Of a stretch of 64,000 bases of DNA, positions 8,395 to 60,771 are shown one piece after another. The position numbers were made by a program, and so were the translations under genes. The stretch spans positions 3,642 to 67,641 of the forward strand of contig JALONJ010000001.1 of assembly GCA_025455045.1 (NCBI GenBank), given 5' to 3'. The notes beneath the pieces were generated by a model. The model searched no databases. It was not told where the DNA came from and was given only the letters and a program-made list of their open reading frames with translations. The number at the start of each line of letters is the position of its first letter. Positions within the stretch are counted from its first letter, which is position 1. Origin of the DNA: Microscillaceae bacterium. Its GTDB lineage: Bacteria > Bacteroidota > Bacteroidia > Cytophagales > Microscillaceae.

Positions 8395-8441
8395 AAGCAA
8401 TAATTTCTGTTAACAATAGTTCGGACAGTTTCTAGTTATTT

Positions 8442-8470
8442 ACTAAGCATCTGATAATCAGTTAGTTACA
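8442..8470. repeat. Family-A palindromic repeat
   Basis: actaagcatc TGATAATCA gttagttaca. Confidence 0.9.
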
Positions 8471-8487
8471 TAAAACATTTAAAATAG

Positions 8488-8516
8488 CATAACTAGCTGA
8501 TAATCAATTACTTATA
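8488..8516. repeat. Family-A palindromic repeat
   Basis: cataactagc TGATAATCA attacttata. Confidence 0.9.
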
Positions 8517-8869
8517 AAAACTGTCCGAAGTATTGGTTAAGGAACGAAGAACTAAATAAAAAATCTCCACATCTCGATTAGGAATCAAAAAAAAATCTGT
8601 AAAGTTTTTGCTTTTCAGTGATTCAGGCTGAAAGAAGGTAGCTTAGCCGTTCTCTACTCAAAGTTAAGATTCCTCAGAGCCTCGCTTGGTAATTTCACCA
8701 AGCGATAGCTTGGCTCATTAATGGTCGGAATGACAAAAAAAATACTTTTCCTGTAATCCAAAATTCTAAAGATATTTTATTAGTCAAGTGAAAAAACCCG
8801 CACAAGGTGTCGAGCAGGCAGGACTTTTAGTTCTCGCTTGCTTTTTTTATGCTCAGCATAGGCTAAAAA

Positions 8870-14550: not shown

Positions 14551-14627
14551 ATAAACTTCATTTGTCAATCATCCCATAACCGATATTTGTAAGTATTTGA
14601 TTTTCAGTTATTTACCAAATCGGTTGT

Positions 14628-17671: not shown

Positions 17672-17688
17672 TAATTTGATTTAAAAAA

Positions 17689-17717
17689 TGTAAGTCATTG
17701 ATAATCAGGTATTTATA
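17689..17717. repeat. Family-A palindromic repeat
   Basis: tgtaagtcat TGATAATCA ggtatttata. Confidence 0.9.
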
Positions 17718-17733
17718 AAATAATTTAGAAAAA

Positions 17734-17762
17734 TGTAACTAGCTGATTATCAGATACTTACC
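17734..17762. repeat. Family-A palindromic repeat
   Basis: tgtaactagc TGATTATCA gatacttacc. Confidence 0.9.
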
Positions 17763-17796
17763 AACAATATTTCGGGTATTTTTTATAAGTAATTGA

Positions 17797-17817
17797 CTGC
17801 ATTTCGCCCAAGACGAA
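17797..17817 (+). mobile_element. Family-K 21-nt remnant splitting a Family-A palindrome at its centre
   Basis: tataagtaatTGA [ctgcatttcgcccaagacgaa] TAATCAatgaattatg; removing the bracketed insert restores a canonical element. Confidence 0.6.
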
Positions 17818-17849
17818 TAATCAATGAATTATGATTTTCAAATAATTTA

Positions 17850-17878
17850 TATAACTCATTGATTATCAGATATTTAGC
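17850..17878. repeat. Family-A palindromic repeat
   Basis: tataactcat TGATTATCA gatatttagc. Confidence 0.9.
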
Positions 17879-17882
17879 CAAT

Positions 17883-18008
17883 AACTAGAAACCCGAAACT
17901 CGGAACTAGAAACCCGAAACCCGGAACTAGAAACCCGAAACCCGGAACTAGAAACCCGAAACTCGGAACTAGAAACCCGAAACTCGGAACTAGAAACCCG
18001 AAACTCGG
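17883..18008 (+). repeat. 21-bp tandem repeat x6 (AACTAGAAACCCGAAACTCGG; copies 2 and 3 have C instead of T at position 18)
   Basis: Six head-to-tail units read directly, followed by partial aacta; unit is related to the Family-C arm tctagttccgagtt; ends 65 nt before the susC-like ATG. Confidence 0.95.
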
Positions 18009-18073
18009 AACTATGGTAATAAAAATAGCAATTAAAAACTCTTACATAATTAATTATAAAACCAACAAGCAAT

Positions 18074-22987: not shown

Positions 22988-23030
22988 TAGTTTTTAGTTT
23001 CGGGTTTCTAGTTCCGAGTTATTAGTTATT
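22988..23030 (-). repeat. Family-C arm fragment
   Basis: tagtttttagtttcgggtttctagttccgagttattagttatt, reverse complement of the 21-bp tandem unit; just downstream of the SusD-like gene. Confidence 0.75.
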
Positions 23031-23045
23031 CTTGAAATATCTGAT

Positions 23046-23137
23046 TGCATTTCGCCCCCAAAACTGCGTTCTGTGGCACACAGAACGTAAATTGATTTAT
23101 CGGAAGACAGACTCAAGCGAAATCCGAATTGTTAAAA
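23046..23137 (+). mobile_element. Family-K 92-nt insert splitting a Family-A palindrome at its centre
   Basis: Left half-site gaaatatcTGAT (to 23045) and right half-site aATCAataaatta (from 23138) are separated by tgcatttcgccccc...cgttctgtg g cacagaacg...gcgaaatccgaattgttaaaaac. Confidence 0.65.
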
Positions 23138-23162
23138 ACAATCAATAAATTAAGTATTTAAA

Positions 23163-23191
23163 TATATAAACAACTGATAATCAATGAATTA
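23163..23191. repeat. Family-A palindromic repeat
   Basis: tataaacaac TGATAATCA atgaattata. Confidence 0.9.
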
Positions 23192-23259
23192 TAAAAAATA
23201 TTCCTACAGCCTTATAGTAGCAACCTTATGTTCAATTTATTAAACTAAATTTAAGTATT

Positions 23260-26760: not shown

Positions 26761-26790
26761 CAATAGTTCGTTGGTTTCTAGTTCCGAGTT
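26761..26790 (-). repeat. Family-C arm fragment
   Basis: caatagttcgttggtttctagttccgagtt. Confidence 0.75.
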
Positions 26791-26836
26791 GCTGTTGCCT
26801 GTGTCCTCACAGGCAACCAACTCAATCTATGCTTTT

Positions 26837-26869
26837 AACTTCGGCAAAGTTTAAAACTTTGCCGAAGTT
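26837..26869. repeat. Family-D perfect hairpin
   Basis: AACTTCGGCAAAGTTtaaAACTTTGCCGAAGTT. Confidence 0.9.
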
Positions 26870-26875
26870 TGGCGG

Positions 26876-26904
26876 ACTAACTCATTGATAATCAATTATT
26901 TACA
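26876..26904. repeat. Family-A palindromic repeat
   Basis: actaactcat TGATAATCA attatttaca. Confidence 0.9.
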
Positions 26905-27006
26905 TTTAAAATAAAATTGATTTTTCCCTAGCGAGGGCTCACCAGGGAAAAATCTCCTTACCCTTGTCTGTGTCCTCACAGGCAACCAACTCGAATCTAA
27001 GCTTTT

Positions 27007-27039
27007 AACTTCGGTAAAGTTTAAAACTTTGCCGAAGTT
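27007..27039. repeat. Family-D hairpin
   Basis: aacttcggtaaagtttaaaactttgccgaagtt (one mismatch). Confidence 0.9.
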
Positions 27040-27045
27040 TGGCAA

Positions 27046-27074
27046 GATAACTCATTGATAATCAATTATTTATA
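27046..27074. repeat. Family-A palindromic repeat
   Basis: gataactcat TGATAATCA attatttata; core ends 21 nt before the bglX ATG. Confidence 0.9.
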
Positions 27075-27085
27075 TTCAAATAAAA

Positions 27086-35516: not shown

Positions 35517-35591
35517 AGGAAATTCTAGCTGATGCTAAACCTAGAACTTAGGTACGCGGGCAGGCTAGACAGCCTGCGCTACAATTATCCT
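35517..35591 (-). repeat. Family-B GC-hairpin repeat, about 75-nt full copy
   Basis: aggaaattctagctgatgctaaacctagaacttaggtacgcggGCAGGCTagacAGCCTGCgctacaattatcct. Confidence 0.8.
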
Positions 35592-35619
35592 GAAAAGTGG
35601 TAAAGAATCACAAACACAT

Positions 35620-36633: not shown

Positions 36634-36653
36634 TTGACCGTGTCTGCCTCTAG
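36634..36653 (+). repeat. Family-H module inside a Family-A element
   Basis: TTGAccgtgtctgcctctag followed by TTGAtaatca. Confidence 0.75.
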
Positions 36654-36673
36654 TTGATAATCAAACAATTAGC
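36645..36673. repeat. Family-A palindromic repeat (left arm displaced by Family-H insert)
   Basis: tgcctctagt TGATAATCA aacaattagc. Confidence 0.85.
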
Positions 36674-38978: not shown

Positions 38979-38998
38979 TTGACTGGGTCTGCCTCTGG
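38979..38998 (+). repeat. Family-H module inside a Family-A element
   Basis: TTGActgggtctgcctctgg followed by TTGAtaatcc. Confidence 0.75.
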
Positions 38999-39048
38999 TT
39001 GATAATCCGCCAAAGGCGGGCAAGTTTTTAAGATGGGCTGATGTGCTA

Positions 39049-46056: not shown

Positions 46057-46636
46057 TTGATTTAGCTTTTGATTATGTTATATTTATGGGCAAAAATAAT
46101 ACTTTTTTCAATTATTTGTTTGCTTTTTTATCATTTTTAAAAGTATAGAAACTAATTTTACTTTGGCTCTTTCAATTTTTTGAACCACAAGTAGCCTAGA
46201 AAACATAGAAAAATACGATTTTAATCAAAAATTTGGTATCGCAAAATTCCTTTTTTTGAGAACTAAAAAGGTTCTTCAGCACTTTTCAGAAATCATCTCT
46301 TCGGAAATTTATCAATTTCAGCAAAAATACTTTTCCTGAAAAGTAGTGAAAAACCAACATATTCGAACACCAATTTTATTTTTTGATGTAAGGTTTGAAG
46401 CCAAATTAACAAGAATTAACAATTTATTATCCTAGTTTTTGTAACCTTTGGTGGGCTTTAAGGTGTATATGCAAAAAAACAAAAGATTTTTTTTTAGTAG
46501 ATGCAACTTTTAAAACCTAAAAAACATCTTTAAGACATACAACGCTTAAAGACAACAAATGAAAATTATTTTAAAAGCCTTGTAATGTTTTTCTGAGTTA
46601 TTCTACTTATACATAAAACCATAAAACAGAGATAAA

Positions 46637-47350: not shown

Positions 47351-47479
47351 CAATAGTTTGGACAGTTTCCGGTTTCTAGTTATTTGCTAAGTGCTTGATT
47401 ATCATATAGTTATAAAAAATATTTGAAATAGCATAACTAACAGATAATCAAGCACTTATAAAAAATGCCCGAAGTATTG
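47351..47479. mobile_element. Family-C composite element (129 nt), second copy
   Basis: caatagtttggacagtttccggtttctagttatttgctaag...(A core 47396)...aaaatatttgaaatag...(agataatca 47442)...aaaaatgcccgaagtattg. Confidence 0.7.
47386..47414. repeat. Family-A palindromic repeat
   Basis: gctaagtgct TGATTATCA tatagttata. Confidence 0.9.
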
Positions 47480-47592: not shown

Positions 47593-47612
47593 TTGACCGT
47601 GTCTGCCTCTGG
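47593..47612 (+). repeat. Family-H module inside a Family-A element
   Basis: TTGAccgtgtctgcctctgg followed by CTGAtaatca. Confidence 0.75.
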
Positions 47613-47632
47613 CTGATAATCAATGTATTACA
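47604..47632. repeat. Family-A palindromic repeat (left arm displaced by Family-H insert)
   Basis: tgcctctggc TGATAATCA atgtattaca. Confidence 0.85.
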
Positions 47633-47687
47633 ACTTGTCCGCCTCTGGTGGATCAGCACACCAGCACATTTTATAACTAACTCATTA

Positions 47688-60374: not shown

Positions 60375-60552
60375 TTTTATTGTATTGAGCAGTCACACTG
60401 AATAAATTTGTCATTTTTTCAAAAATCACAATATTTCGTAGAGATTTTTTTATGGGTTGTGTATGGTCTTTGGCAGATTTCCAAGTCCTGACAATGTTTT
60501 ATATTTATTTGGATAAGTATTTGATTTCCAAATACTTACTTTTTAGCGCAAA

Positions 60553-60581
60553 CTTGCCTCCGCCTTGGGCGGACAGGCAAG
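60553..60581. terminator. GC-rich hairpin downstream of crtY
   Basis: cttgcctccgcc ttg ggcggacaggcaag followed by an A-run then a T-run. Confidence 0.55.
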
Positions 60582-60771
60582 GGCTTAAAAAAAAATTTTT
60601 GAATTACTGATTAATGTTATTATATAAATTATTTTAATAAAATTATAAATAAAAAATAAAATAATGAATCCAATTTTTTCTCGCTCGTTGTCGATTTCCA
60701 TTTTTAGGAATAATTGCAAAATAAAGTAAACTTTTTAAAAACATAATCAATTGAAAATCAGGCAATTAAAC

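Follow-up and report, generated by a model that had tools for sequence, protein, structure and literature searches.

Two small non-coding inserts split an abundant intergenic dyad motif at the same position in an uncultured Bacteroidota

Insertion at fixed positions within REP sequences is known for IS elements of five families (PMC1525189). REP dimers also occur in the middle of longer palindromes, as described for GTAG-15 in Anabaena variabilis, GTAG-23 in Thermomicrobium roseum and CGTC-1 in Halothiobacillus neapolitanus (PMC3733652). Transposases of the IS200/IS605 family bind subterminal hairpins of 20-25 nt and cleave beside the target tetranucleotide that flanks the left end of the element, and the Bacteroidetes possess Y1 HUH subclasses of their own with hairpin repeats (PMC6006769).

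Here we analyzed a 64-kb stretch of DNA (the window) from an uncultured Bacteroidota. It is a housekeeping region with 39% G+C, also represented by a JGI metagenome contig and by a 72-kb NCBI MAG contig of the same sequence. The window carries an abundant dyad with the 27-bp consensus TAAnTAnY-TGAT-W-ATCA-RnTAnTTA, which we call motif A. Two copies of A are split between TGAT and WATCA, and both inserts, K21 and K94, begin with TGCATTTCGCCC. The features of the two loci are as follows, with the evidence for each in brackets.

17784-17797, + strand: left half of the split A at locus 1 (tataagtaatTGAc), with C as the last base where the paralogues have T (alignment)
17798-17818, + strand: K21, the short insert (TGCATTTCGCCCaagacgaat, identical to TGCATTTCGCCCAAGACGAAT) (sequence, 12-mer, alignment)
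17819-17833, + strand: right half of the split A at locus 1 (aATCAatgaattatg) (arm matrix, alignment)
23034-23045, + strand: left half of the split A at locus 2 (gaaatatcTGAT), which is A_b of composite c3 described below (sequence, flank matching, alignment)
23046-23139, + strand: K94, the long insert, comprising the 5′ 12-mer, a 21-nt hairpin, an imperfect internal inverted repeat and a 14-nt tail (the nhmmer match of the composite breaks exactly at 23045/23140)
23046-23057, + strand: 5′ 12-mer TGCATTTCGCCC of K94, common to K21 (exact match)
23067-23087, + strand: hairpin CGTTCTGTG-GCA-CACAGAACG with a 9-bp stem, or 11 pairs if extended to 23065-23089 (folding, terminator scan)
23117-23125, + strand: GCGAAATCC, the imperfect inverted partner (8/9) of GCATTTCGC at 23047-23055, located 14 nt inside the right end and not terminal
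23140-23152, + strand: right half of the split A at locus 2 (aATCAataaatta) (arm matrix, alignment)

A first-pass annotation of this DNA had described locus 1 as an A copy split at the same position by a 21-nt insert with the same first 12 nt, and the locus reads as described. At locus 2 the proposed insert start and split half-sites were correct, but the insert had been given as 92 nt (23046-23137), omitting the final AC of what is a 94-nt segment. Likewise, the 9-bp-stem hairpin is real, but its span of 23067-23085 has to be extended to 23087. The imperfect inverted match GCGAAATCC near the other end is present.

The closest counterparts share the arrangement of these loci only in part. The REP-targeting IS elements (IS1397 and ISKpn1 of the IS3 family; IS621, ISPpu9, ISPpu10 and ISPa11 of the IS110 family) resemble K in occupying a fixed position in a high-copy intergenic dyad whose broken halves flank the insert, and those of the IS110 group, like K, produce no target duplication (PMC1525189). 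In contrast, REP-targeting elements measure 1-2 kb and carry their own transposase, whereas K is non-coding and only 21 or 94 nt long; REPs are GC-rich stem-loops, whereas A is AT-rich and not a stable hairpin; IS3-type inserters generate a 3-4-bp target duplication that K lacks; and the published cases comprise 4-10 of 4-10 copies as compared to two K insertions (PMC1525189). With respect to IS1397 and ISKpn1 in particular, K shows neither the TG...CA terminal inverted repeats, as its right partner lies 14 nt inside the end, nor the duplication. The nested REP dimers are similar to K in that a small hairpin repeat is found at the centre of another palindromic repeat, and in T. roseum hundreds of target palindromes are unoccupied, as is the case for A (PMC3733652). 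However, nested REPs are high-copy, carry a GTAG or CGTC tag and usually form dimers, whereas K has a single untagged hairpin that occurs once in the window (PMC3733652).

The two K loci flank a SusC/SusD pair located downstream of genes for an ECF sigma factor and a FecR-type anti-sigma factor. The FecR-SusC spacer (17672-18073) has a length of 402 nt, as compared to 22-40 nt in related species (L002:6532-6571, L004:1137-1158), and the whole excess is made up of stacked small repeats, namely four A motifs, K21 and a tandem array. A sister strain (L031/L032, with SusD in the 90% cluster) has a different spacer at locus 1, and the FecR-SusC spacer of L031 contains different repeats. GC skew of the window is close to zero and therefore uninformative on replication-strand bias. 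Locus 2 has the same sequence in the JGI assembly and in a Logan assembly made independently, and hence is not an assembly artefact; locus 1 is identical in the JGI contig. The sole difference between the window and the JGI contig over 21 kb is the copy number of a tandem repeat near 27058. There, at approximately 26790-27085, a unit of about 175 nt is present twice in the window and three times in the JGI contig (L037). This unit holds an A motif, a CCTGTGTCCTCACAGG hairpin and a AACTTCGGCAAAG...CTTTGCCGAAGTT hairpin, and the extra copy in the JGI contig has a mutated A core (TGGTAATCA).

We then characterized the interrupted motif. The 64-kb window contains 62 TGATWATCA cores where 0.78 are expected from shuffled sequences, corresponding to a density of about one per kb. 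Approximately 50 of the 62 (about 80%) are intergenic and almost every spacer has at least one (examples are the sites at 2009, 8452, 17699, 23175 and 56220). TGAT and ATCA are separated by exactly one base in all 62 cores, and a matrix built from the 124 arms gave TAAnTAnY-TGAT as the half-site consensus. The density of A is similar in three related genomes (L002, L004 and L031, with SusD 81-90% identical); four more distant Bacteroidota loci have 0 or 1 core each. Judged from these comparisons, A is conserved across a genus-level group of uncultured Bacteroidota. The variable arm positions display almost no covariation, and a typical A copy folds as DNA with -0.7 kcal/mol (z +0.6), no better than shuffles. 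The weak covariation together with the lack of hairpin stability indicates that A is a dyad-symmetric site rather than a REP-like hairpin, which also weakens models of insertion into a hairpin loop. It looks like a putative binding site of an abundant dimeric protein rather than a REP. The core corresponds to the centre of a Fur box, and a literature search with the TGATAATCA string returned Fur-box papers only, yet the copy number rules out a Fur regulon.

The window also contains variants of A. Palindromes with normal arms and altered cores are found at 60510-60540 (TGATTTCCA) and 14590-14612 (TGATTTTCA), and the first of these precedes a GC-rich hairpin and T-run (60556-60600) similar to an intrinsic terminator. 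A second kind of interrupted A occurs at 36635-36663, 47594-47622 and 38980-39008 (n=3). It is composed of the left arm with TGA, 17 nt of the form C[CT]G[TG]GTCTGCCTCT[AG]G[TC], and TGATAATCA with the right arm; the copy at 38980-39008 has TGATAATCC at 39000-39008 in place of TGATAATCA. The junction of this second kind is that of K21 (after TGA, with C as the first inserted base), but TGA is repeated. A sequence related to the 17-nt segment, GTCYGCCTCTGG, is located in direct orientation at 47637 and inverted at 39011-39025. The 17-nt inserts may belong to a GC-rich hairpin family interleaved with A.

To return to the two K loci, the junctions in K orientation read TGA(T/c) / TGCATTTCG... / AATCA in both cases, with the left junctions TGAT/TGCATTT at 23042-23052 and TGAc/TGCATTT at 17794-17804. 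Alignment with the paralogues showed that no core bases are duplicated or missing at either junction, and thus there is no target-site duplication. The exact 12-mer TGCATTTCGCCC occurs twice in the window, both times at a split-A junction, where about 0.008 occurrences are expected for a given 12-mer in 128 kb. The right half-sites score 12.4 and 13.8 bits with the 124-arm matrix, within the range of true arms, and the left arm of locus 2 has a single mismatch, G for the conserved T at -8.

The flanks of the split motifs were compared with those of other A copies. Within the window, the intact A at 17860 has the flank that is most similar to the left-arm flank of locus 2, and the best window-wide matches to the flanks of K21 are both flanks of the intact A at 8498. 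Alignment and nhmmer further showed that both split A's sit in an A-doublet composite of about 110 nt, in which A_a, a 36-nt spacer, A_b and AATAACTAGAAAC come in this order, and a 21-nt tandem array often adjoins the latter. We aligned six copies, four from the window and two from a related species (L004).

17772-17914, + strand: composite c1, with K21 in A_a; the A_b core at 17860-17868 is intact and is followed by the 21-nt array at 17883-18013 (alignment, nhmmer)
8420-8527, - strand: composite c2, whose two A's are intact and which provides a paralogous empty site for K21 and for K94 alike (alignment, nhmmer, flank matching)
22996-23204, - strand: composite c3, with K94 in A_b; the A_a core at 23175-23183 is intact (alignment, nhmmer)
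47363-47471, - strand: composite c4, uninterrupted at both A's, one core being degenerate (TGATTATCT); second paralogous empty site (alignment, nhmmer)
L004:9950-10077: uninterrupted composite copy (alignment)
L004:12511-12596: uninterrupted composite copy (alignment)

Among the six composites, A_a is interrupted in c1 only and A_b in c3 only, and relative to the composite K21 is inserted forward and K94 in reverse. Since they involve different A's and opposite orientations, the two loci did not arise by copying of a single K-bearing unit. The intact composite copies at both positions represent paralogous empty sites and provide the strongest support for nested insertion. K21 and K94 are thus very probably secondary insertions into A, and the two insertion events were probably independent. 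The proposal of a site-specific nested insertion made in the first-pass annotation is borne out by the composite alignment and nhmmer as far as a secondary insertion at the same A-core position without target duplication is concerned, while a mobile family K, targeting of palindromes, insertion into hairpin loops and an IS200/IS605 origin are not established. Its counter-scenario, a single diverged repeat variant without empty-site counterparts, conflicts with the same composites.

A comparison of strains revealed no orthologous empty site. The sister strain L031 lacks the whole block of about 200 nt at locus 2, relatives at 81-85% identity were too diverged, and for the other proteins of the window the collection contained no strain variants beyond more distant relatives. 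As regards the 21-nt array of the composite, the copy at 17883-18013 (AACTAGAAACCCGAAACTCGG, 6.2 copies, 98% matches) lies on the A_b side, a short inverted remnant is present at 22989-23027 directly left of the K94 locus, and array fragments (gtttctagttattt) flank the A's at 8452 and 47396.

Next, we analyzed the composition of the inserts. K94 is 94 nt long, has no ORF and, by the similarities of its parts, represents a mosaic. The hairpin measures 21 nt and begins at a distance of 21 nt from the left end, with z-scores for the K94 fold between -2.3 and -2.75. K21 and K94 have their first 12 nt in common, or 17 when a 2-nt difference in a C-run is allowed, and the tail of K21 (AAGACGAAT) resembles the K94-internal AAGCGAAAT. 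The 3′ ends differ (..CGAAT vs ..TTAAAAAC), and with two copies only no conserved right end can be defined. Near the right end of K94 there is nothing comparable to a second subterminal hairpin, and K21 has no hairpin. Rfam returned nothing at the gathering threshold in the window or related loci; a sub-threshold match to the Lst thermometer (22.9 bits vs a gathering score of 126) was regarded as noise. On the + strand the K94 hairpin is terminator-like in the scan, with 11 pairs and a T-rich tail, so that it may alter read-through from susD into the next gene.

We searched for an enzyme and for further copies. We checked 46 ORFs of the window against Pfam and found no transposase or recombinase among them, and neither tnpA, tnpB nor RAYT is present in the window; the full-length tnpA/tnpB element with K ends envisaged by the first-pass annotation thus has no candidate among these ORFs. 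A metagenome scan with an A arm plus the 12-mer (TANNTGAYTGCATTTCGCCC) gave 8 chance matches and is a weak negative, as the source contig was not among them. A viral scan with TGAYTGCATTTCGCCC gave 17 chance matches, and plasmid BLAST of K94 no match. In all the sequence searched K has two copies only, and their common part is the 5′ 12-17 nt.

The hairpin itself is found elsewhere. The 21-mer CGTTCTGTGGCACACAGAACG occurs exactly in four MAGs of different Bacteroidota families, assigned to Spirosomataceae, Sphingobacteriales, Roseivirgaceae and Cytophagales.

L033:1060-1080: exact copy of CGTTCTGTGGCACACAGAACG, with an extra hairpin copy at L033:68
L034:1440-1460: exact copy
L035:2493-2513: exact copy, with extra hairpin copies at L035:3844/3885
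L036:246-266: exact copy, with an extra hairpin copy at L036:149

These four loci have only the 21-mer in common, their flanks and neighbouring genes being unrelated. Three of them (L033, L035 and L036) contain further degenerate, direct or inverted hairpin copies within a few kb, arranged as singlets, direct pairs and inverted pairs. Based on this distribution, the 21-nt palindrome appears to be a widespread REP-like dispersed hairpin family in Bacteroidota. It was not found in Rfam or in the REP literature consulted, and a literature search with the hairpin string returned nothing relevant. The 64-kb window has a single copy even with up to 4 mismatches allowed, so the hairpin is not a high-copy family in the source genome. 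The 5′ flank of the hairpin foot differs in all 7 aligned copies, and a conserved tetranucleotide of the GTAG/CGTC type is absent. We rejected a role as cis-regulatory site of a polysaccharide-utilisation locus, because in the four other genomes it is found next to unrelated housekeeping genes.

In the sister strain, the FecR-SusC spacer of L031 contains a homologue of the K core (L031:2420-2495) without A half-sites or TGAT alongside. Identity to the K core is 88% over 34 nt (L031:2440-2472), with weaker similarity on either side. In addition, the 15-mer TTGCATTTCGCCCCC (T, the 12-mer and CC) agrees at 13/15 positions with L031:2420-2434 read as the reverse complement, a segment 3 nt upstream of the core, and no other segment of the L031 locus reaches 12/15. 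The homologue is located inside a 186-nt MITE (L031:2335-2520) with 25-bp terminal inverted repeats (TTGGTTCTTCACAACTTTTCAGGAA). The first-pass annotation had stated that K copies away from split half-sites would speak against insertion, and this is partly the case, the only other K-core homologue being in a MITE and not in A. Besides G/C-run hairpins, the L031 MITE also contains part of the 21-nt hairpin in inverted orientation, and the same MITE family is represented in the window by a short member with a different 40-nt interior (46270-46355) and a solo-end-like sequence (35581-35610). The 3′ tail of K94 was tested as a degenerate terminal repeat of this family and showed no significant similarity (p 0.28-0.46).

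As the overall explanation we tentatively propose that K is a small non-coding insert which entered A at least twice and was moved in trans by a HUH-type transposase. K would land between TGAT and WATCA, immediately 3′ of TGAT in K orientation, and would be mobilised as single-stranded DNA by a HUH tyrosine transposase of IS200/IS605 or RAYT type encoded elsewhere. TGAT would act as the target tetranucleotide on the left flank, and the transposase would bind the hairpin that lies 21 nt inside the left end. The palindromic core, with TGAT on both strands and with about a third of the intergenic TGAT, would make A the usual landing place, and K21 would be a truncated or decayed copy no longer able to move.

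That the enzyme is of the HUH type is in itself doubtful. A Y1 HUH enzyme is favoured because K is like IS200/IS605 in the type of junction, in the lack of a duplication and in how large the hairpin is and where it lies, and because the Bacteroidetes have Y1 HUH subclasses. The likelihood is kept low because a right-end hairpin is missing, the 3′ ends differ and the window has no transposase. IS200/IS605 elements such as IS608 and ISDra2, whose left-end targets are TTAC and TTGAT respectively, resemble K in having no terminal inverted repeats and no duplication, a left end that abuts a short target and a hairpin about 20 nt inside. Unlike these elements, which have similar subterminal hairpins of 20-25 nt at both ends, K has no matching right-end hairpin, no conserved right terminus and no nearby tnpA/tnpB, and one of the two copies has no hairpin at all. 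TGAT as a left-end target is weak, with n=2 and C as the last base in one copy. The REP/RAYT systems (REPIN), including the Bacteroidetes Y1 HUH subclasses 2.4 and 2.6, likewise involve a dispersed intergenic repeat, as the K hairpin is in other Bacteroidota, but K has no conserved guide tetranucleotide, is low-copy in the source genome and no RAYT gene was seen in the window (PMC6006769).

We also asked how specific the target is. Intergenic TGAT/ATCA sites number 281, and 100 of these belong to A cores. If TGAT alone were the target and genic insertions were selected against, both inserts would be found in A cores with p of about 0.14, and therefore specific recognition of the whole palindrome is not demonstrated. 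It is a long shot that A constitutes a genome-wide landing pad for a still-active single-strand or RNA-guided insertion system cutting at the centre of the dyad, with K94 and K21 as its first visible products. If so, the system could be reconstituted after discovery of its enzyme in the complete genome.

The best of the other explanations is templated repair, in which a break at or near the centre of A leaves a 3′ end in ...TGAT that primes on a donor preceded by TGAT, copies 21 or 94 nt and is rejoined. Repair explains the fixed 5′ start and the variable 3′ end equally well as transposition and does so without a mobile element. It agrees with the similarity of the two copies over the 5′ 12-17 nt only, the differing 3′ ends, the lack of a target duplication, the absence of a transposase from the window and the different arrangement of the K94 modules in L031, which includes an inverted 15-mer. 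The three further A's with a 17-nt GC-rich segment after TGA can be added to this list, as two of them have a related sequence at a distance of a few tens of nt. However, A is not a stable hairpin or cruciform (its folding energy is like that of shuffles), so it offers no obvious cause for a break at the centre. Moreover, we found no TGAT-preceded donor apart from the two loci themselves, and both junctions are exact to the base on either side, an unusual outcome for filler-DNA repair. Overall, we consider repair unlikely.

Gene conversion and an IS110-type origin are weaker alternatives than templated repair. In the former, one insertion would have been followed by ectopic gene conversion between A-doublet composites, with K21 as a partial tract or the result of a later deletion. 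Both K-bearing A's belong to the same composite family of about 110 nt, which offers more homology than a lone 25-bp motif, and the two loci resemble each other fairly well in their right flanks, with rank 4 of 124 A flanks. Against this, the left flanks rank 39 of 124 and are no more alike than random A flanks, and with A_a paired to inverted A_b only the palindromic arms of about 13 bp would be available to rely on. Conversion is thus quite improbable.

An IS110/IS1111-type origin would make K a non-autonomous derivative that targets the A core by means of a DEDD recombinase and a bridge RNA, on the model of IS621, ISPpu9 and ISPa11 in REPs. Precise insertion at one phosphodiester of a repeated, palindromic target without duplication is as expected for this family, the imperfect inverted repeat of K94 is subterminal rather than terminal, and IS110 is the commonest family among REP-targeting IS elements (PMC1525189). 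On the other hand, neither recombinase gene nor bridge RNA is seen, 94 nt being too short for the latter, and the two copies have no common right end. All this makes such an origin very unlikely, and we know of no established miniature derivatives of the IS110/IS1111 family. K94 also has neither the terminal inverted repeats nor the target-site duplication of MITEs moved by DDE transposases. Since K fails the defining features of each family considered, we do not file it under any of them.

Finally, the idea that the long form is ancestral, A being an internal-deletion derivative with a K interior, draws on the resemblance of K21 to K94 minus its interior and on the end-to-end complementarity kept by both, but this idea, like coincidence or assembly error, can be practically dismissed, because random deletions would not yield the one-base spacing of 62 cores, orthologous and paralogous composites (two of them in a different species) are uninterrupted, three assemblies agree and chance does not explain the same 12-mer at the same junction twice.

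Taken together, the insertion of one repeat in another at these loci is real, small-scale and of a kind already known from other bacteria. The case differs from the known nested insertions in its host phylum, in the AT-rich target that forms no hairpin and in the very small non-coding insert. With two copies and no enzyme, it is a modest and descriptive finding. The stacking of small repeats explains large differences in intergenic spacers between close strains, such as the FecR-SusC spacer with 402 vs 22-40 nt. If K, as tentatively proposed, is truly mobile, its defined target (TGAT/WATCA) and defined hairpin would offer a means of finding the enzyme responsible. Nested site-specific insertion into abundant intergenic repeats, so far documented mainly in Proteobacteria and Cyanobacteria, would then also take place in Cytophagales-like Bacteroidota.
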